The notes under the pieces: generated by a model
What the model was told of the DNA's origin: nothing
The model's database searches: none
The model's input: only the letters and a program-made list of their open reading frames with translations
Part shown: in pieces, positions 2,946-49,334 of the stretch
Layout of the letters: each line of letters begins with the position of its first letter
Numbering within the stretch: position 1 is the stretch's first letter
Assembly (NCBI GenBank): GCA_964461835.1
Contig: CAYWVO010000006.1
Location: forward strand, 13,998 to 77,997
Reading direction: 5' to 3'
From: an uncultured Ignavibacteria bacterium
GTDB lineage: Bacteria > Zixibacteria > MSB-5A5 > WJJR01 > JAJRUJ01
DNA: 64,000 bases
Program-made: the position numbers and the translations under genes

Positions 2946-3810
2946 AGACCTGCTCACCGCCATTCGTCCCGCCCAGTGGGTAAAAAATAGTGTCGTGTTC
3001 GCGGCCGTCATCTTTGCGCGCGAATATCAGGATACCGAGAAACTCCTGCTGGCGAGTATCGCATTTGCGTGTTTCTGTTTGATTTCCTCCAGCGTTTATT
3101 TACTCAACGATGTGATCGATGCGCCCCGCGACGCCAAGCATCCCGTTAAGAAAAACCGGCCGATTGCCTCCGGCAGAGTTCCGCCGGGGCTGGCGTTGGG
3201 GGTGGCGATTGTGTTTGCCGCCGGTGGATTTATCACCGGCTATGTCCTGTTGCCGGACGTGTTTCTGTTGACGCTGCTGGGGTATGTTGTGTTGAATATC
3301 GGATATTCACTGAAACTTAAGCACGTGGTTATTCTGGATGTGATGTCGATTGCCGCGGGCTTTGTGTTGCGTGCGGTGGCGGGAGGATTGGCGGTGTCGG
3401 TGCCGATTTCCTCGTGGTTGCTCATCTGCACGACCTTGCTGGCGCTGTTTCTGGGGTTCGGCAAACGGCGGCATGAACTGGTGTTGCTGGGCAATCAAGC
3501 CGACGGACACCGGAATATCCTGACTGAGTACTCTCCGTACTTTTTGGATCAAATGATTGGTGTCGTGACGGCATCCACCGTGGTTGCCTACTGCTTTTAC
3601 ACCCTTTCTCCGGAGGTCCAGGAAAAATTAGGGTCGGACAAGTTGGTATTGACGGTACCGTTTGTACTCTACGGTGTTTTCCGCTACCTGTACTTGATTC
3701 ATCAAAGGCAGGTAGGCGGGAATCCGACCCGCGTAATGCTGACCGACCTGCCGATTCTGATCACCGTGGTGCTTTGGCTGATTTGTGTGTTGATTATTTT
3801 GGGTGCGTAA
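2938..3810 (+). CDS. UbiA-family prenyltransferase, decaprenyl-phosphate phosphoribosyltransferase-like
   Basis: Has the NDxxDxxxD motif (LLNDVIDAPRDAKH) and multiple TM helices. The MGKDLL start sits inside the longer ORF called at 2896. Confidence 0.8.
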   Translation: MGKDLLTAIRPAQWVKNSVVFAAVIFAREYQDTEKLLLASIAFACFCLISSSVYLLNDVIDAPRDAKHPVKKNRPIASGRVPPGLALGVAIVFAAGGFITGYVLLPDVFLLTLLGYVVLNIGYSLKLKHVVILDVMSIAAGFVLRAVAGGLAVSVPISSWLLICTTLLALFLGFGKRRHELVLLGNQADGHRNILTEYSPYFLDQMIGVVTASTVVAYCFYTLSPEVQEKLGSDKLVLTVPFVLYGVFRYLYLIHQRQVGGNPTRVMLTDLPILITVVLWLICVLIILGA

Positions 3811-3893
3811 TCAACTGGCCCTATCTGCACGAAAGTGCCCCAGGGTTTCCAGGAAACGATTGCATTCAGCGAAATTATCGTGCTCGTCATTGT

Positions 3894-3918
3894 GTGCGCG
3901 GCAGGTCTCCAACCTGCC
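3894..3918 (+). repeat. Family-A hairpin repeat, copy A1 (GTGCGCGGCAGG-loop-CCTGCC)
   Basis: gtgcgcggcaggtctccaacctgcc. Related copies are listed below. Confidence 0.8.
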
Positions 3919-3950
3919 GGCTCGACGGAAAGAAACAGAATCATCCTCTT

Positions 3951-3975
3951 GTGCGCGGCAGGTCTTTAACCTGCC
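3951..3975 (+). repeat. Family-A hairpin repeat, copy A2
   Basis: gtgcgcggcaggtctttaacctgcc, a tandem neighbour of A1. Confidence 0.8.
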
Positions 3976-4080
3976 CGTCTCATGGAATTAGCGGCATCAT
4001 CCCATAGTGCCACCCGCTTCCGATCCCCACGACAAGCATAAATTACCGACGTTTCGAGAATGACAGAACGGGATAGAACG

Positions 4081-4105
4081 GGCAGACGAGACGTCTGCCG
4101 CGCAC
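4081..4105 (-). repeat. Family-A hairpin repeat, copy A3 in inverted orientation
   Basis: ggcagacgagacgtctgccgcgcac. The stem sequence differs from A1/A2 but still pairs. Confidence 0.75.
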
Positions 4106-4299
4106 AAAACCTACCCTCCCGAGGCTGGGCCGGCGACGCTCATTGGCAGATGGCCCACCACGAAAGGAATTATGCAGCAATTCTCGTAATGGTGGGGGTA
4201 GAAAGATTATAGCTACAGGACAGCAGCTGCTATCCCATCACTCCCGGATTTCATCCCTGAAATCCTTCCGTGGTGGGCCGCCCATCATTAGGTAAACAA

Positions 4300-4716: not shown

Positions 4717-4762
4717 CAGGAGCGACCGGATTTGGCACCAGAGGGCATCGCACCTAGAAACC

Positions 4763-4792
4763 CTGACGAACGTCAGGCCCACCCTCCCCCAA
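4763..4792 (-). repeat. Family-E hairpin repeat, copy E1 (revcomp of GGGTGGCCCTGACGTTCGTCAGGGTTTCT)
   Basis: Matches 58412-58443 in the opposite orientation. Has an 8-bp stem CCCTGACG / CGTCAGGG. Confidence 0.75.
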
Positions 4793-4830
4793 AATGGATC
4801 CCGGCTCAAGGCCGGGATGACACGTCGGGG
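4785..4830 (-). repeat. Family-C hairpin repeat, copy C1 (TGTCATCCCGGC-CTTGA-GCCGGGATCCATTTTGGGG)
   Basis: ccccaaaatggatcccggctcaaggccgggatgacacg. Lies downstream of the minus-strand qmoC-like gene. Confidence 0.85.
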
Positions 4831-4853
4831 TGAGTCGGTCTAATTGCCGCAGA

Positions 4854-4888
4854 ACGGGCAGACGTGCAGCCTGCCGGGCACAATTCGC
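4854..4888 (-). repeat. Family-A hairpin repeat, copy A4, degenerate
   Basis: The revcomp reads TGTGCCCGGCAGGCTGCACGTCTGCCCGTTC. Confidence 0.55.
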
Positions 4889-4906
4889 TATATACCAAAA
4901 CAACCC

Positions 4907-4945
4907 CAAACCAAGTCCCGCCAGGGCGGGAAAGTTTGGGGTTGC
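4907..4945 (+). repeat. Family-B repeat, copy B1 (hairpin CCCGCC-AGGG-CGGG followed by GGTTGCCACCC)
   Basis: caagtcccgccagggcgggaaagtttggggttgccaccc. Confidence 0.7.
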
Positions 4946-5006
4946 CACCCATGTTCCATAAAAAAGCCGGTGCACGAGGACGTACCCCGGCCACAGATCT
5001 CATTGT

Positions 5007-5039
5007 CCGGGCAGGCTAAAGGCCTGCCGCGCACACATC
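5007..5039 (-). repeat. Family-A hairpin repeat, copy A5, abutting the stop codon of the qmoC-like gene
   Basis: The revcomp reads ggatgtgtgcgcggcaggcctttagcctgcccgg. Confidence 0.8.
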
Positions 5040-6218
5040 CTACGCCGTGCGCATCTCCCGACCAACCTGCTTGGCGTGGACAATCGCCAGCGTGCGGTAA
5101 ATCATATGCGCAAACTTCGAGTAGGGCATATACCACAACAGGAAAAACACGAACACCAAATGCGCGAAATAGTTGGCATAGGCGACCATCGGCAGCCCGG
5201 TGTACCGCAATAGCCAGGAAAGCATCCCGGTCAGACCCGTTAAGAACATTATGTAGATAAACAAGTAATCGGCGTAGCCGTTGGCGCCGACTTCATCCTT
5301 GTTCTGCCAGCGACGGACGATCAACCAGGTGCTGCCCACCAGCAGGGCAATTCCGCTGAGCGCACCCAGGATTTTCACCGGGTGCGGCGGTTCGATTGGT
5401 ACCTGGAAAAACGAATCCAGCGTTTCAATCCCGAACCAGGTGTGGAGATAATGCGGCAAGAATACGAACAAGAGCACCAAGCCGGTGGTGATCATCGCTC
5501 CGATAAACCCAAAAAACAAAATCATGTGGGCCTTGGCGCGGGGTTTGTTGGTTGTGCATTTGTTGAACTTGGTGTGGGTGAAAATCTCCTTCATCGTCGC
5601 CACAAATGCGGGCACAAACCCCATATTTACCTGCCCGACATCCCGATTGAGCGCGTCCCAGAACCTCTTGAACGCAACCGCAGCGAAGATGAAGATCAGG
5701 ACGTTGCCGAATACAAAGAGTGCATCCACCGTGCTGTGCGGCATAAAAATATTGTAATCGATCGCCGCCTCCGTCATGAACAGATACTCCCCGTCCACCT
5801 GGGGCGCTGAGAGAACGATACTCCCCAAAATGATCAGAATCGGTACCAAAAAGAGCACCGGCAGCGCTTTCGGCGTGGCCAGCGCCTTCCCCATGAATTT
5901 AGGGAACGAATAGTTTTCATAGATATAGGTGCGGATCGCTGCAAGCACATCCCCCGGCCGCGCGCCCCGCGGGCAGTAGGTCGTGCAATCATTGCATTGA
6001 TGGCACAGCCAGACATCCGGGTCGGCGATCAGGCGGTCTTTCTGACCCCAGCCGGCCCAGAGCATCTCTTTGCGCGGGAACGGCCTGTCCTCCGGTGAGA
6101 GATTGCAGACGACCGAGCAGGTCGCACACTGGTAGCATTTTTTCAGTGTCTCGCCCCCATTGCGGCGGACACTGCGAATAAATTCTACATCGGGTTGAAT
6201 CGTTTGGACTTCCGCCAT
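5040..6218 (-). CDS. qmoC: Membrane-bound FeS/heme-b oxidoreductase, QmoC-like. It fuses an HdrC-like 2x[4Fe-4S] ferredoxin domain to an HdrE/NarI-like transmembrane domain.
   Basis: Has two CxxCxxCxxxCP motifs (CYQCATCSVVC…P and CHQCNDCTTYCP). These are followed by roughly 6 TM helices containing conserved His. Length 392 aa. A GAGGAGAG RBS precedes the start. The gene is divergent from sat-aprBA. Confidence 0.65.
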   Translation of the reverse strand: MAEVQTIQPDVEFIRSVRRNGGETLKKCYQCATCSVVCNLSPEDRPFPRKEMLWAGWGQKDRLIADPDVWLCHQCNDCTTYCPRGARPGDVLAAIRTYIYENYSFPKFMGKALATPKALPVLFLVPILIILGSIVLSAPQVDGEYLFMTEAAIDYNIFMPHSTVDALFVFGNVLIFIFAAVAFKRFWDALNRDVGQVNMGFVPAFVATMKEIFTHTKFNKCTTNKPRAKAHMILFFGFIGAMITTGLVLLFVFLPHYLHTWFGIETLDSFFQVPIEPPHPVKILGALSGIALLVGSTWLIVRRWQNKDEVGANGYADYLFIYIMFLTGLTGMLSWLLRYTGLPMVAYANYFAHLVFVFFLLWYMPYSKFAHMIYRTLAIVHAKQVGREMRTA

Positions 6219-12018: not shown

Positions 12019-13455
12019 TTAGCCCGTTTCATCTGGTGTGTAATAGTTAGTTGGAAAGTGTTTCAAATTGTAAATTGCAAAATCATGGAGTAATATCTGC
12101 TTCCAGTTAATTGGGAATATTTTTAACGGTTGTAATCTATCCAGATATACTGGATCTATTCTAAGCATAGTTTCTCTTCCCCGAGCCCCCCCTATCAGGA
12201 GATTTATCCTCTCAATGCCGAATTCGGTTTCCAAGATTTCCTTGATCTTAGTTGCGAATTCGTCTGCCCCAGTGCTAAAACTCAGAGCAATCCTCAGATG
12301 TCCTGTGCCCCCTGTGCGATCTGTAGGACTAATTCGGCTCCGCACGTCTGCGTAACCTCTAACAAAACTCATTATAACATTCCTATCCACTGTATCAGCG
12401 ATCAGATCAGGGATAATTGGCACCACCCCGCGGCGAGTAATTTGCAAGGAGGATAAATAATCATTAACGGCACATAAGACTGCTGAAGATCCATTAAATC
12501 TAATCCTGATCTTATAATCATAATCAGATACTTTTTGCACCGACGCCCTGTCGCCGGAATCTATTCTATCGAAGTACTCATTTAGAGAATCGCGAATCCC
12601 ATTTACGTCTTTTCGGAAAGCCTTAGCCTGGTCCATTCGGAAGCTCGTAATTCCATCGGCGAGGATGATGCCTTCATTCTCAGTACCCCGGTTAAATACG
12701 CCTTTGTGGTAAATGATTTCTAATAACCTATCATGCACCAATGTCCCCCCGGCGGCTATAAGACCCAAAAGGTATGCTATGTCTGCATTGGGGATAACCT
12801 GCATTGCCTCTATAGCGGCCTGGAATAGACTGTCTAACTCGTTCCTATGAGTAGCCTGCAGTCGTTGAACAAGAGGCGTATCTCCTCCTTGCTCATTGAA
12901 GAACCGCTCATATTGTTCGATAATTGCATAATGGTTTTCGGGCTTAATGGCGCAGGGTGAAGCCCAGATGGCTTCCACCTCTTCTTTCGTACTTCTCAGT
13001 ACACGATCTCTTGAGACGCCTTCAAGGAAGACATTTGCTTCCAGATTATGGGTTATTCCAGAAACAGTCAAATTGGAAGAGCCGATTATAACTTTCAAGG
13101 CAGAAGACTTTCTGAATAAATATATCTTAGAGTGTAATAGTCTTTTGCACTTTTCGTTCACTACTTTCTCTGATCTGTAAAATACTCTGCATTGTGAATT
13201 ACCGGGGATGGTAGCCAATTCCTCGATGATTTGTGGTTCCGTGAAGAACCGCTCTATGTCGAACACAACACGAAGTCTTCCACCCCTTCGCAAAAAAGAA
13301 ACAATATCTTCCCTGAATAGTTCAAATGCATTATACCTGGCAAAAGCAACTAGGAAGAAAATATCATCTGCCCAACGGAGACAATCCCGAATCTGTGACT
13401 CTAATTGTTTTCTTTCGGTGGTCAGAAGGTAAGCTTCCATTTGTTCAACAATCAA
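12019..13455 (-). CDS. PLD-superfamily (HKD-like) nuclease, the putative restriction endonuclease of a Type II R-M pair. Its C-terminal roughly 280-aa domain is uncharacterised.
   Basis: Has the partial HKD signature LHSKIYLF…IIGSSNLT near residue 110. It overlaps the upstream methyltransferase gene by 4 bp. GC is low, about 40-45%. Confidence 0.65.
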   Translation of the reverse strand: MIVEQMEAYLLTTERKQLESQIRDCLRWADDIFFLVAFARYNAFELFREDIVSFLRRGGRLRVVFDIERFFTEPQIIEELATIPGNSQCRVFYRSEKVVNEKCKRLLHSKIYLFRKSSALKVIIGSSNLTVSGITHNLEANVFLEGVSRDRVLRSTKEEVEAIWASPCAIKPENHYAIIEQYERFFNEQGGDTPLVQRLQATHRNELDSLFQAAIEAMQVIPNADIAYLLGLIAAGGTLVHDRLLEIIYHKGVFNRGTENEGIILADGITSFRMDQAKAFRKDVNGIRDSLNEYFDRIDSGDRASVQKVSDYDYKIRIRFNGSSAVLCAVNDYLSSLQITRRGVVPIIPDLIADTVDRNVIMSFVRGYADVRSRISPTDRTGGTGHLRIALSFSTGADEFATKIKEILETEFGIERINLLIGGARGRETMLRIDPVYLDRLQPLKIFPINWKQILLHDFAIYNLKHFPTNYYTPDETG

Positions 13456-14282
13456 TCTCGTTTCCGAAAGATCAAGATGAATTCGTGGACTTTGTTAACC
13501 CTGAATACGCTTGGATACCCCAAAGGCCGCAAATTGTTGTATTCTTGCTTTCTATTCCAGATAATAATATCATCCAATGCAAACCCAATATCTGCCATCA
13601 TCGCCTGAATATCCATATGCAACGGATAACATTTATCCCCTTTTCGAATATCCATCACGATTACACAACAGTACCCATTTGGTTGGGTTGCACGATAGAC
13701 TAGTTCGAAGATTTCCCTAAGTTGTGCAAAGAAATCGGAGTAATCTGTTACGTTTCCAAGGTCACTCGGGGTGTTTCCGTAGTTTCTCCGGTTCTTTCCA
13801 TCAGCCGTACGTTTTTGATTGAGAATATCCCAATATGGCGGTGAGGTTATGGTTAACCTCACCGAATTGGGTTCGACATATTTCGCTAGATTTCTTGCGT
13901 CTGCACGTTTCATTTTCGCGAGAGCACTGTCAATGGTGTTGAATATATCCGTCTGTTGTAATCGTCTTTTGTATAAATCGATAAATGCCGGACTTAATTC
14001 AATTCCCAGACTGCGCCTATCTAATGCAGATGCTGCCAACAAAGTGGACCCGCTTCCGGCAAAAGGATCTAAAACCAGGTCGGATTCGTGGCTAAAAATC
14101 TCAATCAAACGGCTACACAGCATTGTGGGAAACATTGCAGGGTGATTGAGCTTCAACTCCTGCGGTGATTTTCTTATGTCATCCCAAACTGAAACGGAGT
14201 ACTTTAGCCAGGTCCTTCCATCCAACCCTATTGTGTTCTTTGTGGATAATCCCATCATGCAAACTCCTAAACCACTTGCCAT
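13452..14282 (-). CDS. DNA methyltransferase, N4-cytosine or N6-adenine, with gamma-type motif order
   Basis: Motif I/X is HPAMFP…VLDPFAGSGST. It is followed by SPPYWD (motif IV). Length 276 aa. GC is low. Confidence 0.85.
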   Translation of the reverse strand: MASGLGVCMMGLSTKNTIGLDGRTWLKYSVSVWDDIRKSPQELKLNHPAMFPTMLCSRLIEIFSHESDLVLDPFAGSGSTLLAASALDRRSLGIELSPAFIDLYKRRLQQTDIFNTIDSALAKMKRADARNLAKYVEPNSVRLTITSPPYWDILNQKRTADGKNRRNYGNTPSDLGNVTDYSDFFAQLREIFELVYRATQPNGYCCVIVMDIRKGDKCYPLHMDIQAMMADIGFALDDIIIWNRKQEYNNLRPLGYPSVFRVNKVHEFILIFRKRD

Positions 14283-14600
14283 GCTCAGCCGGACAAAAAT
14301 ACGTAAATAGGTGTGCGTTTGGAAATCATATTTTATCTTACTGGGGAAAAGAATTGCAACTGTCTCTCCTTATTGAGGTTAGGGGCCCGCAAATCTATTT
14401 CCGTAAATCGAGACTTTGGTTTGATCCACTGTAACTGATTACGTGGTTTCGACAAACGCAAAATTGGACCCGATTACTTCTCAGCATTCCTGGAGGGCGA
14501 GCCACCCGATTCTTTCACAAGAAGGTTGGTTCTCCCCAGAATTTCCCTGCGCCGGCGCCGGCCAACTCGTATGGTATTTGATATATGTGGGGGGTCACCG

Positions 14601-15059
14601 ATGAAAAATGATCTGACATATCGTGAAGTCCAGCCGGTTGAGTTTCCTAACCTGTTCAAACTATTGATCACCGAAGCACCGGAATTTGTCGAGACCGCCA
14701 TCCAAGTCCTCGATGCCGACGAAGAGCAATTTTATGAGATGTTCACGAACGAGGGCAAGGTCATCGCTATCGAATATCAGGGACGGCTTGCCGGATACTA
14801 CTGGATTGACGAAAACGGCGATACGTTCCATCTGCACGCGCTGGTGCTCAGACCGGAATTTCAAAACCGTGGTATCGGCAGTTATGTGATGAACGTGGTG
14901 GAAGACGCAACCGGCAAACATTTCAAGCGTATTGACGTTGGATTCAACGCCTCCAACCGTCGTGCCCGGGCATTTCTCGAACGGCACGGGTATCGCGTTG
15001 TCAAGGAAACACCCGACACGAATTATGTCTTCATGCAGAAGCCGCTGAACGAATCGTAG
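14601..15059 (+). CDS. GNAT family N-acetyltransferase
   Basis: Has the acetyl-CoA binding motif Q/RxxGxG/A (NRGIGSYVM). The ATG start sits inside the longer ORF called at 14526. Confidence 0.8.
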   Translation: MKNDLTYREVQPVEFPNLFKLLITEAPEFVETAIQVLDADEEQFYEMFTNEGKVIAIEYQGRLAGYYWIDENGDTFHLHALVLRPEFQNRGIGSYVMNVVEDATGKHFKRIDVGFNASNRRARAFLERHGYRVVKETPDTNYVFMQKPLNES

Positions 15060-15078
15060 ACACTGCAATTTAATTTGG

Positions 15079-15135
15079 AGGGTGGCAACCCCAAATGAAG
15101 CCGCCTCCGGCGGACCAAGTTTCGGTTGCAACCCG
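15079..15135 (-). repeat. Family-B repeat, copy B2 in inverted orientation (GGTTGCAACC…GTCCGCCGGAGGCGG…GGGTTGCCACCC)
   Basis: gggtggcaaccccaaatgaagccgcctccggcggaccaagtttcggttgcaacccg. Confidence 0.75.
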
Positions 15136-15212
15136 ATATCATCTACTGTGTCATAGAATACGATTTGCCTTTTACAGCTGATCGTTCCTGCCCCCTTGCT
15201 GCGCAAGGGTAA

Positions 15213-15248
15213 TGGGATCCCGGCTCAAGGCCGGGATGACACGTGGGG
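15213..15248 (-). repeat. Family-C hairpin repeat, copy C2
   Basis: gggatcccggctcaaggccgggatgacacgtgggg. Confidence 0.85.
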
Positions 15249-15342
15249 TAGCGGTACTAATTCTGCAGGATGGGCAGACCAGGAGAGGCAGTCACACAAA
15301 CCGCTTGTAAGGTAGTTCGGGTTCCGAAGAACGCAGAGCATT

Positions 15343-15426
15343 ACGAGAAACCCGACATTTGTAATCCGTTGTGGTAGTGTCGGGTTTCTCCGCGCGCTGA
15401 CGCGCACCTCGGAACGCCGACCTACT
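15343..15426 (+). repeat. Family-D repeat, copy D1 (TGTCGGGTTTCTCCGCGCGCTGACGCGCACCTCGGAAC). It includes a 13-bp inverted repeat GAGAAACCCGACA / TGTCGGGTTTCTC.
   Basis: A second copy lies at 21872-21923, with substitutions in the CGCGCG…CGCAC region. Confidence 0.75.
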
Positions 15427-15537
15427 GCAAATTCGACCCCATGACATTTGTCAACAGGCCCATCTGTCCGGGCCACGCTCGGTCTGCTAGCTCAGAGGTA
15501 AAGCCGGATCATACTGTTGCAATACGACATCAACCCC

Positions 15538-15583
15538 AAACTCGTTCCGCCGCAGGCGGACTAAATTTGAGGTTGCCACCCGC
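15538..15583 (+). repeat. Family-B repeat, copy B3
   Basis: gttccgccgcaggcggactaaatttgaggttgccaccc. Confidence 0.7.
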
Positions 15584-15599
15584 TGCTTGTGGCGGAACG

Positions 15600-15628
15600 G
15601 GCAGGTTCAAGACCTGCCGCGCACAAAA
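15600..15628 (-). repeat. Family-A hairpin repeat, copy A6, abutting the stop of the minus-strand lipoprotein gene
   Basis: ggcaggttcaagacctgccgcgcacaaaa. Confidence 0.8.
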
Positions 15629-16510
15629 TCACGGGCACTCGACGTCATTCTGGCTTTCATCCCAGCAGCGCCAGTTGTTGTCCCCGTAGAAATGCGGGTC
15701 CCTGATTCGACCATCTCCATCAATATGGTGCCACTCAATCTCGACCAGGTTCGCATTCGGCACGTTGTACAAGTTGTAGAACCGGTCGTATTCGTTGTCA
15801 GTGGTCGAGCCGTAGGAGATATAGCCGCCGTTGTTTGGGTTTTCCGGGATAACGTTGGTGTATTTCAAAGTCCCGGTATCGGCGGCGTCATCGTAGGTCC
15901 ATTCAATCGCCAAAAACGGCCTGGGGTCGGTTGGGGAGTGGTTCAAGTTCCAACTACCGGCTGATCGGTCCAGCTGACTGATACCGGTATACCATTCAAA
16001 ATCGGTGTACTCACTCTCCTTACTGATGGTCATGATCCAGAATACCTGATCACCGTCCACCCGACCATTCAACACTGCGCTGTGCTCCACGCCACCGGCG
16101 GTGAAGCTATACGCCCAGTTCCAGGAATTATCCTCCGGCTGCCACACCGGGTCCTGGCCGAATGCCGCTACAAACGAGGCAGCGGGGACGATCAGCGCCA
16201 GATTGAGGAGTGCATCCCAGATCCCGATCTGAAAAGCGGCACGAAACCAATAATCCTTGGTCTCTGATTGAGTTCTTTTGCCAAATAGCGGGCTAACCCC
16301 GTCGCCCCGATCGAAATCGTCAAAGTTCATGACGAATGACGATTGCGGCGGCAGGGGCGGTGCCTCTTCCGCTGGGCCGGTGGGATCATCGTCACTGCAC
16401 CCAACAAACAGCAGGGAAAACGCCATAAATGAGGCGAGGATCCCCAACCAACGATGCCGTCGCATATTTCTCATCTGGTTTCTCCTCTCAATGTATTGAT
16501 CCGTCTGCAT
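15629..16510 (-). CDS. Hypothetical secreted lipoprotein
   Basis: Has a signal peptide with the lipobox LLFVGCSDD. No recognisable domain. The true start is probably an internal Met (MRNMRRHRW…). Confidence 0.5.
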   Translation of the reverse strand: MQTDQYIERRNQMRNMRRHRWLGILASFMAFSLLFVGCSDDDPTGPAEEAPPLPPQSSFVMNFDDFDRGDGVSPLFGKRTQSETKDYWFRAAFQIGIWDALLNLALIVPAASFVAAFGQDPVWQPEDNSWNWAYSFTAGGVEHSAVLNGRVDGDQVFWIMTISKESEYTDFEWYTGISQLDRSAGSWNLNHSPTDPRPFLAIEWTYDDAADTGTLKYTNVIPENPNNGGYISYGSTTDNEYDRFYNLYNVPNANLVEIEWHHIDGDGRIRDPHFYGDNNWRCWDESQNDVECP

Positions 16511-17611: not shown

Positions 17612-17685
17612 GCGCCCATAGCTCAATTGGACAGAGCGTCTGACTACGGATCAGAAGGTTGGGGGTTCGATTCCTCCTGGGCGTA
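17612..17685 (+). tRNA. tRNA-Arg, anticodon ACG
   Basis: Manual cloverleaf. Acceptor stem GCGCCCA / TGGGCGT, D-arm GCTC…GAGC, anticodon stem TCTGA / TCAGA with loop CTACGGA, and T-arm GGGGG-TTCGATT-CCTCC. No encoded CCA. Confidence 0.85.
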
Positions 17686-19006: not shown

Positions 19007-21826
19007 GTGTCTTACATGGTCACGAAGCTACGGTTCTCTATCGCGGTATTTTTTGCACTGATGGTAACTGGTGTTTGTCTCATATCGGCATCCGCACAAC
19101 ATTTGCCGGTCCAATACCACGGTGATTACGACATGGAATTTTTCTCCGCAGGAAAGTACTTACAGGATATTCCCACTCCGGAATCGATATTGGGATACAA
19201 AGTCGGCAGCCGCCCGGCCACCCACGCCGAGATTCGGTCCTACTTTCGTGCGCTCGCTGAAGCCAGCGACCGGGTGATTCTTCGCTCGCACGGAGTAACT
19301 TACGAGGGCCGTGAGTTGATTCATGCAATCATCACTGCACCTGCCAATCACACGGAATTGCGTCAAATAAAATCACGTAACCAGAAACTCGCCGATCCGT
19401 CCCTGGCCGCCCCGAATGAGGCGTCACGGATCACCCAGAGCAATCCGGTTGTTTTCTGGGCCGGGTATAATATTCACGGGGATGAACTTTCCGGTGCAGA
19501 CGCGGCCATGCAGGTGGCTTATCAACTGGCGGCGGGTACCGACACCATGACCCTGGCGATTCTGGATGATGTCGTGGCGATTATCGATCCGATGGAAAAT
19601 CCGGACGGCCGCGATCGCTTTCTGGCGATGATGCAAGTTTTGAATACCGCGGTTCCGACACCCGATGCACAGAGTTTACAACATCGGGGAGTCTGGCCCT
19701 ACGGCCGCAGTAACCATTACTGGTTCGATTTGAATCGCGACTGGTATGCACTCGTGCACCCCGAAACCCAGGGGCGGGTGGAGACCATTATCGACTGGAA
19801 CCCGCAGGTGATTGTTGACGCGCACGAAATGGGAGTCCACAGTAGCTTCTTGTTCTCGCCTCCGCGCGCGCCGTACCACCCGACCGTCACCGAAAACCGC
19901 AAGAAATGGTGGGACATTTTCGCGCGTGATCAGGGAGCGGCATTCGACGAGTATGGGTGGCGCTATTACTCGGGTGATTGGAACGAGGAATGGTTTCCCG
20001 GCTTTACCACCTCCTGGGGCGGATTGACCGGCGCCGTGGGGATTCTCTACGAACAGGCGCGGGTTGAAGGTAAGCTCTCGAAGCAACCGGATAAATATAC
20101 CCTGACCTACGGTGAAACAGTCCATCACCAGTTCGTCAGTTCAATTGCCAACCTGCGGACCGCCGCGTTTCATCGCGAACGACTGCTGCGCGACTTTCAT
20201 GCCGATAAGCTAGCTGCAACAAGGGCCCGACCGGGGGCATATCTGATCATCCCGGGCGACAATCCCGGCATCGTGAATACCCTGATTCGCACGATGCAAA
20301 CGCAGGGTATTCAGGTTATGCAAGCGAAACATTCTTTTGCAGCAACCGGGCGAAACTACTGGAACGCGTCCGAGACCAGCCGGCGGTTTCCCGAGAAAAC
20401 CATCGTGGTCACGAAGAACCAACCGATGGGGAACCTGGTGGAAACGATCCTCTCCTTCGATCATCGCCTGTCGGACAGCATTCTCGCCGAAGAGCGCAAA
20501 TCAATATTGCGTGGTGAGGGCGGCACGATGTATGAGATCACCGCCTGGTGTCCGTTGATGGGCTATGGGCTGACGGCGTACGATTTCGAGGGGAATCTAA
20601 GCGTGGCGCTCGAAGCCGCCGAACCAATCGATATCCCGGCGGGACGGCTGATCGGCGAGGATGCTTCCCAAGGCTATGCCATGCGTACGCTGGCCGATCA
20701 TGAAATTCGGGCATTGGTCGAGTTATTCCGCGAGGAGATTAACCTGCGGGCGGCGCGGAAACCGTTTTCTCTTGGCGATCAAAAGTTCCCTGCGGGGAGC
20801 GTTGTCATTTCACGCAAAGGCAACCCCGACAATCTCAATGATATTTTAAGGCCAATCGCCGAAACGACCGGGGCGAATTTTTATGCCGTACCCACGGGCC
20901 AGGCTACAACGGGCTACGATCTCGGCAGCGGAAAATACGACCTGCTCGCGCGTCCCCGGATCGCCATGGTTGCCACCAGCCCGGCGAGCTATACTACTGC
21001 CGGCGCCATCTGGCACATGCTGGACCAACGGTTGCAGATTGAACATTCGCTGCTGGATGCAACTCGTCTCGGGGATCTATCAAAGTACAATGTGCTTATT
21101 CTGCCGAGCAGTTGGCGTGGCCCCGGCGGATACCTCAGGACGTTTGGGGAAGGTGACATCAAGACCATCAAAGATTGGGTAGCGGACGGTGGTACGTTAA
21201 TTGCCACCGGCAGCGCGGCGGCATTCTGCGCCGACACCAGTGTGGGACTGTCACAGGTTCGGCAACGGCGTCAAGCGCTTAATATGTTGGACTCCTTCGA
21301 AAAAGCAGTGGCCGACGAGAAAGAGGCCAAATCTCCCATGGTTTCTGACATGGTGCTATGGAAGCGCCCGCCGGGGACTCGCCAATCGGAATCAGCTGCT
21401 CCATCGCCACCAGTCAATATGCAGGAACTCGCAGAGGAGGACAGCGACGCGCGACGGTTCCGACCGCACGGGACAATCGTGCGGGTGGATCTGGACACCG
21501 AGGAATGGCTGACCTTTGGTATGGAAGACAAAGTTCCGGCACTGATGAGTTCATCTTATGCCTTACTCTCGAAGCCACCAGTGCGCACCGTGGGACGATA
21601 TGGCGCTGAGCAAACAATTCGTCTGTCCGGTCTGCTCTGGCCGGAAGCTCGGGAACGGTGGGCGGAGACTGCATATCTCACCCGTGAATCTCGCGGCAAG
21701 GGACAAGTGATTTTGATTGCGGAACGGCCGGTTTTTCGCGGCTATTTTCACGGCACCGAACGGTTATTGATCAACGCTATTCTCTTTGGACCGGGATTGG
21801 GATCACGCGAGGCGCTGCCCTGGTAA
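19007..21826 (+). CDS. Secreted M14-family zinc carboxypeptidase with a large C-terminal extension
   Basis: Has a signal peptide and the M14 Zn-binding HGDE motif (NIHGDELSG), with the downstream His (DAHEMG) also present. Length 939 aa. Confidence 0.85.
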   Translation: MSYMVTKLRFSIAVFFALMVTGVCLISASAQHLPVQYHGDYDMEFFSAGKYLQDIPTPESILGYKVGSRPATHAEIRSYFRALAEASDRVILRSHGVTYEGRELIHAIITAPANHTELRQIKSRNQKLADPSLAAPNEASRITQSNPVVFWAGYNIHGDELSGADAAMQVAYQLAAGTDTMTLAILDDVVAIIDPMENPDGRDRFLAMMQVLNTAVPTPDAQSLQHRGVWPYGRSNHYWFDLNRDWYALVHPETQGRVETIIDWNPQVIVDAHEMGVHSSFLFSPPRAPYHPTVTENRKKWWDIFARDQGAAFDEYGWRYYSGDWNEEWFPGFTTSWGGLTGAVGILYEQARVEGKLSKQPDKYTLTYGETVHHQFVSSIANLRTAAFHRERLLRDFHADKLAATRARPGAYLIIPGDNPGIVNTLIRTMQTQGIQVMQAKHSFAATGRNYWNASETSRRFPEKTIVVTKNQPMGNLVETILSFDHRLSDSILAEERKSILRGEGGTMYEITAWCPLMGYGLTAYDFEGNLSVALEAAEPIDIPAGRLIGEDASQGYAMRTLADHEIRALVELFREEINLRAARKPFSLGDQKFPAGSVVISRKGNPDNLNDILRPIAETTGANFYAVPTGQATTGYDLGSGKYDLLARPRIAMVATSPASYTTAGAIWHMLDQRLQIEHSLLDATRLGDLSKYNVLILPSSWRGPGGYLRTFGEGDIKTIKDWVADGGTLIATGSAAAFCADTSVGLSQVRQRRQALNMLDSFEKAVADEKEAKSPMVSDMVLWKRPPGTRQSESAAPSPPVNMQELAEEDSDARRFRPHGTIVRVDLDTEEWLTFGMEDKVPALMSSSYALLSKPPVRTVGRYGAEQTIRLSGLLWPEARERWAETAYLTRESRGKGQVILIAERPVFRGYFHGTERLLINAILFGPGLGSREALPW

Positions 21827-21871: not shown

Positions 21872-21923
21872 GGTAGGATGATGTCGGGTTTCTCCGCGCG
21901 TTGACACGCACGTCGGAACCCGG
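21872..21923 (+). repeat. Family-D repeat, copy D2
   Basis: atgtcgggtttctccgcgcgttgacacgcacgtcggaacccggcctaca. Confidence 0.75.
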
Positions 21924-22083
21924 CCTACATCACAAGCTTGCGGGACGGTGTCGAGACGCCTGCCGCGCATAAAATAGACCGGGTCGTGGTGTAAGTCGGC
22001 ACGCTTTTTTATCCTTACCAAACGGGATATATTTTGCTATATCTTTTTTGGGCGGGGTAACGGTCGGAGCGGAGCCTAATAGT

Positions 22084-46292: not shown

Positions 46293-48359
46293 TCAGTTTC
46301 CCTTCTCATCCCCGCCTTCCAGCGGGTACTCCAGCTCATACGGTGGCGGATCACCACCGGGGCCTTGCAGATAATGGTCCATCCAGCGTTTTACCCGCAG
46401 TGCAGTGTCGTACCGCGATGAGGCTTTGCTGCTGCCGTGTCCCTCTCCCGGATAAAACACCAGCCGTACCGGCGCCTGGCCGGTGGTTTTCAAGTACCGA
46501 TACAGTTCCATCGATTGACTGGGGTGGACACGCGTGTCATTCTTGCCATGCAAAATCAACAGCGGGGTGTTTGCTTGTTGGGCGTAGTAAATGGGGCTGC
46601 GTTCCAGGTACCACTGCCAGTTTTCCCAGGGCCAGATGCGGGCGTGCACCAGATACATCTCGTTGGGGATATCCGTGGTGCCGAACTTGGAGATTAAATC
46701 AGACACGCCGACCCGCATCACACTGGCGGCAAAGTATTCGGTCAGAGCGGTAGCCGCCCAGGCCGACGCATACCCGCCGTATGAACCGCCGGTGATCCCG
46801 ACTTTATCACGGTCGACCAGACCCATATCGACCAGTGGGTCAATGGCATCGACGATATCGTTAAATTCTCCGCCAGCGTAATCGTTCTGACCCATTTTGG
46901 AAAACTCAACACCCCGGCCGGTGCTGCCGCGGTAATTGGGAATGAACATTGCATAGCCGTTGGCGGCCAACACCTGCGCCTGACGGGTGTAGGTGGTTTT
47001 CCACTCATTGCGTTCGTGCGATTCCGGGCCGCCATGAATATACATGATCAGGGGGTACCGCCGACCGGGTTGTTCATCCAGCGGATGGATTAAAATTCCC
47101 TGAAGTTCGAGACCGTCGCGCGCCTGATAGGTGAACACTTCCTGCTTGGCCAGGCGACGCGTGTCCAATTGCGGATTCACCTCGGTAAGGCGGACCACCT
47201 GCTTGGCGCCCGGTTTCCGGTAGTGGACTTCCCAGGGATATTGCGGCGTGCTGCCATCAAACGCCATACTCTCACCGTCATCGGCGACCGACAGCCCGTA
47301 CAGTACCGGTCCGCCGGGAGGTATGAGCTGTTTTTTCTCTCGTGATTTAATATCAATCTCATTCAGTGTCGTATATACACCCTCATCAGCAAGATAAATG
47401 ATCGTCTTGTTGTCTTTGAATGCGCATTCGCGGACATGGCCCATAAAATCGGGCGTGAGATTTTCCAGCGAGCCTTCGGCGACAGTTCCGACTAGCAAGC
47501 GGCCTTCTTTGGGATCGTTCAAATCAATCCCACGGGTCATTGCCACGTGCTTACCGTTCGGGCTGACCGCGATTCGGCCGAGTTTGGCGTCGTGATCGAA
47601 GGTGGTCACAATTTCACCGGAGGCGATATTAACCACATACACATTCCGCGCCATGTAGCGGTCGTCGATCAGTGGCGTGGGGGCCAGCGCCAGCACCAGA
47701 TGTTCACCATCGGGACTGAAGTGCAGCTCGGACGCCGAACCGTCGAGTTCAATTTTCCGGGGGTCCGTGTCGGAGTCCCAGGGATTGGCCACGAAGACCT
47801 CGACTGGGAAGATATCTTCCTCGTACACTTCCTGTTTGAATCCCTTCTCACGAGCGTCTTTGCTTTCTTTGGATCGTTGGGCCGAGGCAAGGAATGCAAT
47901 CCGTTGCCCGTCCGGGCTCCACTGATATTCTTTGATGCTGGTGTTGTGTTCGAGAAGTTTGCGTGATTCGCCGCCGTCGATGGGGATAACATACAGGGAT
48001 CGGTGCTGATCCTCGTCCCGTTTGGCCAGGTACGAGATATGCTGCCCGTCCGGCGTCCAATCAATTGCCCTGACAGAAACCTTGCCGGTCACGAACGGTC
48101 GTGAGTTTCCATCAATATCGCAGACATGCAAATCGGACCACCCGGGAGCGTTTTCATCCTCAAATGGCGTGCGCGGTACATACAGGCGGTAGGCAATGTA
48201 ATGACCATCGGGTGAAATCACGGCGTTGTACACGTATTTCATCGTGACCACGTCTTCGATCGTAAATACCGAGTCTGTATCCTGAGCAGGCGATACGGCC
48301 AAGAGAAATGCTAGCAAAATAACGCTGCTAAATGCAGCGGTGCGGATTCTGACAAACAT
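46293..48359 (-). CDS. Secreted S9-family serine peptidase (beta-propeller plus alpha/beta hydrolase; acylaminoacyl-peptidase-like)
   Basis: A signal peptide follows a GGGAGG RBS. Has the nucleophile elbow GGSYGGYA and C-terminal Asp/His. Confidence 0.85.
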   Translation of the reverse strand: MFVRIRTAAFSSVILLAFLLAVSPAQDTDSVFTIEDVVTMKYVYNAVISPDGHYIAYRLYVPRTPFEDENAPGWSDLHVCDIDGNSRPFVTGKVSVRAIDWTPDGQHISYLAKRDEDQHRSLYVIPIDGGESRKLLEHNTSIKEYQWSPDGQRIAFLASAQRSKESKDAREKGFKQEVYEEDIFPVEVFVANPWDSDTDPRKIELDGSASELHFSPDGEHLVLALAPTPLIDDRYMARNVYVVNIASGEIVTTFDHDAKLGRIAVSPNGKHVAMTRGIDLNDPKEGRLLVGTVAEGSLENLTPDFMGHVRECAFKDNKTIIYLADEGVYTTLNEIDIKSREKKQLIPPGGPVLYGLSVADDGESMAFDGSTPQYPWEVHYRKPGAKQVVRLTEVNPQLDTRRLAKQEVFTYQARDGLELQGILIHPLDEQPGRRYPLIMYIHGGPESHERNEWKTTYTRQAQVLAANGYAMFIPNYRGSTGRGVEFSKMGQNDYAGGEFNDIVDAIDPLVDMGLVDRDKVGITGGSYGGYASAWAATALTEYFAASVMRVGVSDLISKFGTTDIPNEMYLVHARIWPWENWQWYLERSPIYYAQQANTPLLILHGKNDTRVHPSQSMELYRYLKTTGQAPVRLVFYPGEGHGSSKASSRYDTALRVKRWMDHYLQGPGGDPPPYELEYPLEGGDEKGN

Positions 48360-48663
48360 CGTATCCTCCCCGAAGTTTCCGGCATGATTGTCACCCGGCA
48401 ATGAGACTATTTCAATATCCTGAACGCGCAAGATACCGAATTCGAACCGGAAATTCCAATGCCGGGAGCAGTTGGGTGACAATACTTAGGAAGAGTGTTG
48501 AAAAAAAGCGGTAATGTCAGATTTGTGGTAGGTCGGTGTTCCGAGTCCGGGCCGCCGTGGCGGACCAAACGAGAAACCCGAAACCAACCCAACGATTTAC
48601 AAATGTCGGGTTTTTCGGTATGCTGCGCATTCCTCGGAACCCGACCTATGAAAGGCTGGTATC

Positions 48664-49008
48664 TCAACGGTCTTTGCGGGCAAGGTAATTGTAAGGGTCA
48701 AAATACGAGTGCCAGAGTGTATCCGATGATCCAAACAGGTTCTCACCATAAAAATAATCGACCACCACCTCCCGCAGCCGGGCAAACTCTTTAAGGCGGG
48801 AATAAGTGGTCTGCGCATCCAGGCTCAGGTGCAGAAGTTCCAGCGCGCGTTCCACTGCCGCTTGTGCGTGCTCTCGTTTCCCTTTGCGGCGCCAGGTGAG
48901 GGCACGGATGACGTCATTGCCGATGTTGGCCATCTGTTCAGCGATTGACAATTGTCGCCAGCGCTCCAGCGTCAGCCGCTGGTGGTAACGATTTATCGGC
49001 TGATCCAC
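48664..49008 (-). CDS. Hypothetical protein of 114 aa, possibly HEPN-like (Rx4-6H-like RRKGKREH)
   Basis: Overlaps the upstream small ORF by 16 bp. The family assignment is speculative. Confidence 0.35.
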   Translation of the reverse strand: MDQPINRYHQRLTLERWRQLSIAEQMANIGNDVIRALTWRRKGKREHAQAAVERALELLHLSLDAQTTYSRLKEFARLREVVVDYFYGENLFGSSDTLWHSYFDPYNYLARKDR

Positions 49009-49334
49009 TGTTCGGTCACCGCAACAATTCGCTCTTGTGTTTGTTCATCCTCCACAAAACGGCTCACGTTTCCTTGTGAAGGTCTGATATTGATCAGTGA
49101 ATCAAATTCGAGGAAATCGTCACCGGTTTCATCGGGATAGAAATTGATTCCCCAGAGGTTCTTTTGAGCGGAACCGTCCTCCAGCAACAATGATTCCAAA
49201 TCGGCATGCATCTCGGCATCAAGCGCAATAAGTTCCCGGTCCACGTCCACGACGGCCTTAACCATCGTGCCGAAGGAATTTCGCGCTATCCGCTGCAAAT
49301 CCGCGATGGTAATCGGCGATTTTATCACCTGCAT
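48993..49334 (-). CDS. Hypothetical protein of 113 aa
   Basis: First gene of a two-gene overlapping pair. No recognisable domain. Confidence 0.35.
   Translation of the reverse strand: MQVIKSPITIADLQRIARNSFGTMVKAVVDVDRELIALDAEMHADLESLLLEDGSAQKNLWGINFYPDETGDDFLEFDSLINIRPSQGNVSRFVEDEQTQERIVAVTEQWISR

Follow-up and report, generated by a model that had tools for sequence, protein, structure and literature searches.

What kind of element lies behind the short inverted repeat in the 15060-15630 intergenic gap, and does it act as a structured RNA or as a protein-binding site, the two options left by an earlier sequence-only reading of this DNA? The question was followed through the window (the whole 64-kb stretch of DNA analysed) and into other genomes. 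The repeat, called the D unit here, is very probably a GTAG-tagged repetitive extragenic palindrome (REP).

D units in the window

The arms of the inverted repeat, GAGAAACCCGACA and TGTCGGGTTTCTC, are perfect over 13 bp as first reported; they lie at 15345-15357 and 15378-15390 with a spacing of 20 nt, not at 15343-15355 and 15380-15392 with 24 nt. By chance, ~0.05 perfect 13-mer inverted repeats with arms within ~50 nt of each other are expected per 64 kb (64000 x ~50 x 4^-13), so the inverted repeat alone is borderline and it is the family evidence that takes it beyond chance. The arms are the inner part of two whole units of ~46 nt, which had gone unnoted, as had a second full doublet at 48528-48649.

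In doublet 1, the left arm (15312-15357, minus strand) was located with a fuzzy pattern and with a hidden Markov model (HMM) built from non-window units (E = 5.5e-08). On the plus strand it reads GTAGtTCGGGTTCCGA-hairpin AGAACGCAGAGCATTAC-GAGAAACCCGACA, with GTAG at the outer (5') end. After a 20-nt spacer between both inverted units (15358-15377), the right arm (15378-15425, plus strand, HMM E = 3.5e-10) is laid out as TGTCGGGTTTCTC-hairpin CGCGCGCTGACGCGCACC-TCGGAACgCCGACCTAC, with GTAG outermost on the minus strand. The doublet is placed between convergent genes.

Doublet 2 was first seen as inverted repeat I1 (78 nt at 82%). One unit (48528-48581, minus strand, repeat search I1, HMM E = 2.4e-07) reads tTTCGGGTTTCTC-hairpin GTTTGGTCCGCCACGGCGGCCCGGAC-TCGGAACaCCGACCTAC on the minus strand and is followed by a 22-nt spacer (48582-48603). 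The other (48604-48649, plus strand, HMM E = 1.1e-08) reads TGTCGGGTTTTTC-hairpin GGTATGCTGCGCATTCC-TCGGAACCCGACCTAt on the plus strand, its tag decayed to ATAG on the opposite strand. The doublet sits between two minus-strand ORFs, 48664-49008 and 46293-48482 (S9 peptidase). An ORF for a DUF5674 protein was seen at 48993-49334.

The near-identical copy previously placed at 21872-21923 is real, and its true extent is 21882-21928 (plus strand, repeat family D8, HMM E = 9.8e-08). It was 92% identical to the right arm of doublet 1 (21882-21919 against 15378-15415), the internal sequences quoted for the two copies (CGCGCGCTGACGCGCAC and CGCGCGTTGACACGCAC) were correct, and its apical stem is weakened by a single G-to-A change. 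This unit lies 56 nt past the stop of an M14 peptidase-like ORF (19007-21826), upstream of an MscS-like gene (Pfam).

The HMM, built only from the units of other genomes, recovered exactly five D units in the window (E from 3.5e-10 to 2.4e-7; next match E = 2.5), a multi-copy load of 5 units per 64 kb. Their common core is TGTCGGGTTTCTC-hairpin-TCGGAAC(N)CCGACCTAC, and all three D sites are intergenic, between Pfam-supported ORFs. The doublets 15312-15425 and 48528-48649 are REPINs (REP doublets forming a hairpin), and 21882-21928 is a singlet.

Anatomy and folding

D units are about 46-55 nt long and, from the tagged end, are organised as follows: 5'-GTAG-G-TCGGGTTCC-GA-(variable self-complementary hairpin)-GA-GAAACCCGAC-A. 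The foot is a conserved stem of 10 bp (GTCGGGTTTC/GGAACCCGAC) with one T·G mismatch and, in some units, a bulged base; above it come a small internal loop and an apical stem-loop that is free to vary. The unit end CCGACCTAC is GTAGGTCGG on the other strand, i.e. the GTAG tag. Conservation of the core was partly dictated by the search pattern; the outermost G of GTAG, which was absent from that pattern, is 97-98% conserved, and the tag was also intact in copies reached independently via protein homology, at both ends of 4/4 transposase loci.

The folding check proposed earlier gave a stable fold common to the D units. Across the collected set, a minimum free energy structure with at least 14 bp was obtained for 153/185. 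As single-stranded DNA (ssDNA), doublet 1 (15310-15427) folds at -29.6 kcal/mol (z = -4.4 against shuffles) and doublet 2 has z = -4.9; lone window units show a modest gain over shuffles (z from +0.3 to -3.1). The apical hairpin is highly variable (171 distinct inserts among 185 units) and its pairing is maintained by covariation: among 173 distinct units, mirror positions form Watson-Crick pairs in 52-81% of cases, whereas shuffles give 27-35% (47% at most), and all four pair types were found at each position.

Distribution across genomes

That the D unit might recur outside the window had been raised as a check, and the unit does so widely. An exact-pattern contig scan found D units, among the matches listed, in more than 114 stretches from ~55 metagenome-assembled genomes (MAGs), mostly Zixibacteria, including at least 11 separate 8-kb chunks of one 3.98-Mb chromosome (OY969724.1). 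Altogether 185 units were gathered, a pattern-biased sample in which 127/185 are singlets. Pairs have a preferred orientation: 29 doublets are GTAG-outward, 5 GTAG-inward and 2 tandem. Doublet spacers fall mainly into two groups, 8 nt and 19-23 nt, the latter being the commonest class of the 29 GTAG-outward doublets. The units are mostly extragenic: 27% of them fall under stop-to-stop ORFs of at least 150 aa, whereas positions drawn at random from these loci do so in 84% of cases. D units possibly also occur in a MAG whose label places it in a different phylum (Deferrimicrobium).

Three copies on OY969724.1, at 0.59, 1.26 and 1.60 Mb, are near-identical over ~125 nt (three variable columns) with unrelated flanks; these doublets sit inside a larger palindromic element. 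Together with the tandem identical doublets of one other locus (L021), they support recent doublet copying.

The flanking transposase

In 4/4 independent loci (L115/L116, L117, L118 on CP070813.1, and L119/L120), a gene for a 159-aa protein lies between two D units in inverted orientation, their GTAG tags on the outside: GTAGGTCGGGTTCCGA..GAGAAACCCGACA lies on the upstream side and TGTCGGGTTTCTC..TCGGAACCCGACCTAC directly past the stop. The four proteins are different and are 52-54% identical to the homolog P0023. A partial locus, L032, has the downstream D unit only. On CP070813.1, both a D-flanked gene (L118) and, 0.38 Mb off, a dispersed D unit (L078) are present.

The flanked proteins fall in Pfam Y1_Tnp (PF01797, 'Transposase IS200 like') and score 109-113 bits on the NCBIfam model for REP-associated tyrosine transposases (RAYTs), NF047646 REP_Tyr_transpos (cut-off 80); on the IS200 model they reach 20-23 bits or have no listed match (cut-off 55). 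P0023 aligns to E. coli TnpArep (PDB 4ER8) with E = 2.9e-16, with conservation of the HUH histidines (HxH), Y115, N119 and H123, residues whose roles are known from the structure paper (PMC3479197). The first tblastn probe, an E. coli RayT sequence, served as a lead only, and the conclusions rest on the Pfam, NCBIfam and PDB matches. The RAYT of locus L084 was rejected as a D-associated gene and left out of the D count because it is flanked by another palindrome, GTCGCCCACGGCTTGCCGTGGGA.

D units and the RAYT that they flank are in the defining REP/RAYT ("REPtron") arrangement. Of the two roles first suggested, protein binding is supported by the REP architecture and by the homologous units that flank RAYT genes in 4/4 loci; the D hairpin would be recognised by the RAYT, by analogy with known REPs. 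No RAYT gene was detected in the 64-kb window by tblastn with five RAYT homologs (best E = 0.12), and the cognate enzyme is accordingly assumed to be encoded in the window's own genome.

Neighbouring palindromes

The other repeats named earlier in the 15060-15630 gap were all found: two B units, one C and one A. The A unit (CGGGCAGGTTCAAGACCTGCCGCGCACAAAA, 15598-15633, plus strand) belongs to a second REP family, with a GTGC/GTGG tag on the opposite strand, and A-like units flank a different RAYT paralog (L102-type) in loci L102, L121, L122 and L123. The A-like unit reported beside the D singlet was also recovered, as a degenerate unit at 21944-21979 (plus strand, repeat family D1, 69% to the reference copy). 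The C unit (GGATCCCGGCTCAAGGCCGGGATGACA, 15214-15240, plus strand) combines a stem of 8 bp and a loop of 5 nt with a tag, (C/T)GTC, that is read on the opposite strand; judged by eye, it fits the CGTC-tagged REP class, whose features have been described (PMC3733652). The B units are the palindromes CCCCAAA..CCGCC-loop-GGCGG..TTTCGG (15090-15125) and CCCCAAA..CCGCC-gca-GGCGG..TTTGAGG (15535-15571).

The whole gap is a mosaic of palindrome families A, B, C and D that resembles bacterial interspersed mosaic elements (BIMEs). Palindromes of types A, B, C, D and E are packed in the gaps 3880-4115, 4756-5043, 15060-15630, 31450-31810 and 58268-58574. D and A each have a RAYT partner, giving at least two REP-RAYT pairs.

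Comparison with known systems

The closest known system is that of the GTAG REPs and RAYT/TnpArep (E. coli REP/BIME and YafM/TnpArep, PDB 4ER8; Nunvar 2010; Ton-Hoang 2012; Messing 2012, PMC3479197). Like the E. coli REP, the D unit carries GTAG on the 5' side of an imperfect palindrome whose stem has a conserved mismatch or bulge, is extragenic and multi-copy, and brackets a small HUH/Y1 gene as inverted copies; the opening GTAGG(A/T)CGG is shared with the crystallised E. coli REP GTAGGACGGATAAGG. It differs in its host, an uncultured Zixibacteria-like lineage (FCB group) and not a member of the Proteobacteria, and from classic REPs of 20-40 nt in its two-tiered layout of 46-55 nt, in which the foot is conserved and the apical hairpin varies greatly.

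The REPINs of Pseudomonas fluorescens and others are a related system (Bertels & Rainey 2011, PMC3116915; RAYT groups 2 and 3, PMC5581495). As in REPINs, two inverted REPs with a short spacer form one long hairpin in a preferred orientation (29:5:2 for D), singlets occur beside doublets, compensatory changes keep the hairpin, and there is an association with RAYTs. Set against REPINs, the D core (a near-invariant foot and GTAG) is common to ~55 species-level MAGs whose RAYTs are only ~50% identical.

Several palindromic unit types crowd the same intergenic gaps, as in BIMEs, but the types of the window come from different families (at least two with separate RAYT paralogs), unlike those of E. 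coli BIMEs, in which defined linker motifs connect Y/Z REP variants. With the ends of IS200/IS605 elements and with PATEs/MITEs, the D system would share a Y1 HUH enzyme, a subterminal imperfect ssDNA hairpin and a tetranucleotide guide.

Alternative explanations

A non-coding or cis-regulatory RNA is one alternative: a transcript of the ~115-nt doublet could form a three-way junction, or that of a single unit a hairpin. As RNA, the doublets are indeed much more stable than shuffles (-56.2 kcal/mol and z = -5.7 for doublet 1; -58.9 kcal/mol and z = -4.8 for doublet 2), the apical hairpin varies in a compensatory manner, and REPs that follow a gene are commonly transcribed along with it (PMC3733652); transcribed from one strand but not the other, the T·G of the foot would give a G·U pair. 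Against an RNA, G·T pairing in the variable stem adds just 1-4% to Watson-Crick pairing. Both units of a doublet are on opposite strands, and D units show no orientation bias relative to the flanking genes (28:33, crude gene calls). The coexistence of singlets and doublets is ill-suited to a single RNA architecture, and the family flanks a transposase gene. Rfam searches returned only a tRNA-Arg (17612-17685) for the whole window at the gathering threshold and only weak chance matches (e.g. P9 and L31 leader), none for D, for 15000-15700 at E <= 10; no tRNA or tmRNA was predicted near the D element. The structured-RNA half of the earlier proposal is on these grounds very improbable. It is likewise highly unlikely that the D units are MITEs or PATEs whose origin and movement go back to an ordinary IS transposase (IS200/IS605 or another) and not to a domesticated RAYT. 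Many database copies of the flanked gene are labelled plain 'transposase' and the Pfam family carries the IS200 name, but the protein passes the RAYT equivalog model and fails the IS200 model (113 vs 20 bits; cut-offs 80 and 55). Unlike IS200/IS605 elements, the gene has ends that are inverted copies of the same GTAG palindrome instead of distinct left-end and right-end hairpins, and no tnpB beside it, its neighbours being unrelated housekeeping genes. Short gene-less units are also vastly in excess of gene-bearing copies: among the 114 pattern-selected loci listed, this type of RAYT was present only in L032.

A primary role taken on for the host (attenuating or terminating transcription, stabilising mRNA 3' ends, or binding nucleoid proteins or gyrase) would be compatible with REP identity, and such functions are documented for enterobacterial REPs (PMC3733652, PMC3479197). 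Doublet 1 lies between convergent genes, and gaps with D units are somewhat richer in convergent genes (21/79 vs 92/494) and poorer in divergent ones (11/79 vs 96/494); these counts are rough, since the crude gene caller that produced them got the GNAT gene wrong. Given that D hairpins are followed by no T-run and have no strand bias, we consider such a primary role unlikely. A terminator scan of 14900-15800 gave a single site, which falls in a B unit; none lies over the D units, and shuffled sequence gives as many. The attC, retron msr/msd and CRISPR candidates were dropped, since nothing matches the R''/R' core, the surroundings encode neither a reverse transcriptase nor an integrase, and the spacing is not regular.

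Proposed mechanism

For the D unit as a GTAG-tagged REP, a mechanism can be proposed by analogy with E. coli TnpArep/REP and the REPINs of P. fluorescens. The unit would fold when the DNA is single-stranded, e.g. at the replication fork, and the cognate RAYT would bind the hairpin foot and the 5' GTAG, where it would cleave and rejoin the strand. This 159-aa HUH/Y1 enzyme probably has one or a few genes elsewhere in the genome, each set between two D units, and its activity may copy REP doublets into new extragenic sites; the D copies of the window would then be non-autonomous passengers. GTAG-dependent binding and cleavage of ssDNA REPs are established for E. coli TnpArep, and in the 4ER8 complex the protein touches the stem bottom and GTAG (PMC3479197). 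The conserved foot and GTAG of the D unit and its variable apex match this contact pattern. For the D units themselves, we infer binding, cleavage and mobility from these parallels, and we take it that the genome of the window also encodes the RAYT.

There is a small chance that the D family is more than a routine REP. The near-invariant foot and GTAG, and an apex that is hypervariable yet strictly Watson-Crick-compensated even within one genome, could reflect (a) a templated, RAYT-linked regeneration of the palindrome in place of slow mutation and selection, hairpin processing being the step at which one arm would be copied from the other, or (b) an ancient, phylum-wide and vertically inherited REPIN-RAYT partnership put to use by the host.

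Significance

GTAG REPs have been reported for Proteobacteria, Cyanobacteria, Chloroflexi and the PVC group (PMC3733652). A literature search found no paper linking Zixibacteria to REPs or RAYTs, and the range of REPIN-RAYT systems is thereby extended into the FCB group. When the D core was searched for in the literature, a 10-mer was matched only in unrelated primers and a 13-mer and a 16-mer had no match.

One conspicuous group of intergenic repeats of an uncultured phylum is explained as REPs and REPINs with identifiable cognate RAYTs. This is a known kind of mobile DNA, ordinary and junk-like, and no new biological principle is involved. The combination of a conserved foot, presumably contacted by the enzyme, and a free apex may be useful for studies of RAYT recognition and of REPIN population dynamics. 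For annotation practice, D units should be masked, and neither sRNAs nor small ORFs should be called there; the units also explain the fragmentation of assemblies at such sites. As a separate observation on the window, its Lon-like ORF has 80.6% amino-acid identity to CP070813.1.

D units in the window

The D unit is a repetitive extragenic palindrome (REP) tagged with GTAG, D doublets are REPINs (inverted REP doublets), and the gene-bearing D copies in related genomes are REPtrons, in which inverted REPs bracket the gene for a REP-associated tyrosine transposase (RAYT). The basic unit was derived by aligning three window sites, followed by 132 copies in other genomes that matched the pattern exactly. 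It spans ~46-55 nt and reads TGTCGGGTTTCTC-[variable insert]-TCGGAAC(N)CCGACCTAC: its foot is formed by pairing of GTCGGGTTTC with GGAACCCGAC (one T·G), one third of the units carry a bulged base, and the insert is a small hairpin in its own right. The opposite strand reads GTAG-G-TCGG..., i.e. GTAG followed by an imperfect palindrome.

An HMM built from non-window units only matched exactly five D units in the window (E 3.5e-10 to 2.4e-7; next match E = 2.5). The full form, found at 15312-15425 and 48528-48649, comprises two inverted units, 20-22 nt apart, whose GTAG tags face outwards. The 13-nt perfect inverted repeat described by the sequence-only reading is real and represents the inner half-feet of the two units in the first doublet; its arms lie at 15345-15357 and 15378-15390, 20 nt apart, each shifted by 2 nt from the positions originally assigned. 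The second D copy claimed by that reading was also present (21882-21919, 92% identical to 15378-15415), with the full unit at 21882-21928 instead of 21872-21923, and the A-like unit placed beside it is a degenerate copy (21944-21979) located 3' of the D unit. A whole-window repeat search revealed a third, overlooked D site, as a 78-nt inverted match (82%) between 15313-15390 and 48571-48648. The gap 15060-15628 is bordered by a GNAT acetyltransferase gene (14526-15059, + strand, Pfam PF00583) and a convergent 293-aa ORF (15629-16510, - strand); a DNA methyltransferase (13452-14282, - strand, PF01555 N6_N4_Mtase) is encoded just upstream of the GNAT gene.

Distribution and copying of the D unit

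A pattern scan over contigs (one genome per species) returned at least 114 stretches matching D. Among the matches listed, nearly all were from Candidatus Zixiibacteriota MAGs (a few were labelled Ignavibacteriales, FCB group or Deferrimicrobium), and at least 11 separate 8-kb chunks belonged to the single chromosome OY969724.1. A fuzzy search collected 185 D units, a sample biased by the search pattern, with 127 singlets; paired units formed 29 GTAG-outward doublets, mostly spaced by 8 nt or 19-23 nt, plus 5 GTAG-inward and 2 tandem pairs. D units avoid coding sequence: stop-to-stop ORFs of 150 aa or more covered 27% of them, compared with 84% of positions drawn at random from the same loci.

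The OY969724.1 copies at 0.59, 1.26 and 1.60 Mb are near-identical over ~125 nt (three variable columns) and their flanks are unrelated, which indicates recent copying. A larger palindrome of this chromosome, TGTTGAAAAACCA[doublet]TTCTTGCACCATCCGTGCACTTTTTCAACA (stretches L011, 4850-5000; L013, 3390-3540; L084, 610-760), encloses a D doublet of the 8-nt spacer subtype and is in turn bordered by short hairpins or repeats that differ between copies; a differently labelled MAG contains a near-identical version of this element (L080, CAZVNK010000180.1). Typical D doublets were also seen on four contigs (L027, L041, L074, L104) of DATMWY01, which carries the non-Zixibacteria label Candidatus Deferrimicrobium sp.; either the REP-RAYT system has spread horizontally or the contigs were misbinned or mislabelled.

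RAYT genes flanked by D units

A tblastn search with an E. coli RayT sequence served as a lead only: in stretch L032, a Y1-transposase-like ORF stops 12 nt ahead of a D unit. Its protein had 1778 homologs at E <= 1e-5, typically of 159 aa with PF01797, many from Zixibacteria. Four different homologs were examined in context (L115, L117, L118, L119) and all four genes were bracketed by D units, with GTAGGTCGGGTTCCGA-[hairpin]-GAGAAACCCGACA upstream and TGTCGGGTTTCTC-[hairpin]-TCGGAACCCGACCTAC directly 3' of the stop codon (4/4 loci each). Chromosome CP070813.1 holds both a D-flanked RAYT (L118) and a dispersed D unit (L078). Against the NCBIfam model NF047646 "REP-associated tyrosine transposase" the D-flanked proteins scored 109-113 bits, above its cut-off of 80; against the IS200 model they scored at most 23 bits, below its cut-off of 55.

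The 159-aa D-type RAYT P0023 matched E. coli TnpArep (PDB 4ER8, E = 2.9e-16), and the alignment paired the HUH histidines along with counterparts of Y115, N119 and H123 (residue roles as given in PMC3479197). TnpArep makes contact at the base of the REP stem and at its 5' GTAG (PMC3479197): these are exactly the conserved parts of D, whereas the D apex varies. By homology, the D unit would likely fold in single-stranded DNA, the RAYT would likely bind the foot and GTAG, and cleavage and rejoining by the RAYT would be the likely route by which D doublets spread. Transcripts of neighbouring genes may be affected as a side effect.

No RAYT gene was found in the 64-kb window by tblastn. The window probably derives from a Zixibacteria-like genome. 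Its Lon-like ORF (55754-58207) is 80.6% identical to its counterpart in the Zixibacteria chromosome CP070813.1, in which Lon is followed ~1.3 kb downstream by the D-flanked RAYT; just downstream of Lon in the window (58210-58600) there is only an A/C/E repeat cluster, without RAYT. In L115 (364-1086), the public gene call P0001 (240 aa) extends too far at its N-terminus and takes in the whole D unit upstream (GTAGGTCGG at 542, GAGAAACCCG at 583); the true start is probably near 607, giving 159 aa.

REPs and REPINs are familiar elements, as are their RAYTs (PMC3116915, PMC5581495, PMC3479197, PMC3733652), and GTAG REPs have been reported for Proteobacteria, Cyanobacteria, Chloroflexi and the PVC group (PMC3733652). 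The literature search found neither a paper tying REPs, REPINs or RAYTs to Zixibacteria nor one with the D core sequence. Mildly unusual are the long two-tier unit with its hypervariable compensated apex, and a core common to many species despite RAYTs that are only ~50% identical.

Palindrome conservation in DNA or RNA

The sequence-only reading had considered a structured RNA and proposed folding. D doublets did fold better than shuffles by a wide margin as RNA (-56.2 kcal/mol with z = -5.7, and -58.9 kcal/mol with z = -4.8), and as single-stranded DNA the z-scores were -4.4 and -4.9; single units surpassed shuffles only modestly as single-stranded DNA (z from +0.3 to -3.1). The inserts are hypervariable (171 distinct in 185 units), and across 173 distinct units their mirror positions were Watson-Crick in 52-81%, versus 27-35% in shuffles (maximum 47%), with all four pair types at each mirror position and G·T contributing 1-4% only. 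D orientation relative to the flanking genes in tandem gaps was 28:33 (crude gene calls), Rfam returned nothing over D (window at gathering threshold; 15000-15700 at E <= 10), and no terminator-like T-run followed the D hairpins in a scan of 14900-15800. The compensated palindrome with scarce G·T, the balanced orientation and the lack of Rfam matches and T-runs thus favour a palindrome maintained at the DNA level over a strand-specific RNA.

Other repeat families

A second REP family is formed by the A units, GGCAGG-N7-CCTGCC-GCGCACAA, of which the window has ~10 copies in both orientations (3880-4115, 4855-5043, 15598-15633, 21944-21979, 31716-31750, 58268-58302, 58473-58507). A-like units flank a RAYT paralog of the L102 type in 4/4 loci (L102, L121, L122, L123); this paralog (NF047646, 100 bits) is ~33% identical to the D-type RAYT, and some database entries of its type are already auto-annotated "REP element-mobilizing transposase RayT". 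A third paralog (L084, 3702-4214, - strand; NF047646, 93 bits) is bordered by a different palindrome, inverted GTCGCCCACGGCTTGCCGTGGGA (flanks 3650-3700 and 4215-4260), and a D unit lies only ~70 nt beyond one such flank; several REP-RAYT pairs thus coexist in one genome.

The C unit is GGATCCCGGCTCAAGGCCGGGATGACA (4795-4821, 15214-15240, 31767-31793, 58336-58362, 58538-58566); its 8-bp stem closes a 5-nt loop, and the opposite strand carries a (C/T)GTC tag. Judged by eye, it agrees with the class of REPs with a CGTC tag described by Di Nocera et al. (PMC3733652), whose members (dRS3/RPE-like) reportedly have no dedicated transposase. B units are CCCCAAA..CCGCC-loop-GGCGG..TTTGGGG palindromes (4917-4940, 15090-15125, 15535-15571, 31453-31478, 32057-32083); the B, C and A copies named by the earlier reading for the region 15060-15630 were all recovered at the positions listed here. 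The E unit, AGAAACCCTGACGAACGTCAGGGC, is palindromic (4756-4779, 58420-58443). Several window gaps resemble enterobacterial BIMEs in their piled-up palindromic units, and B and E always occur within the same repeat-rich gaps.
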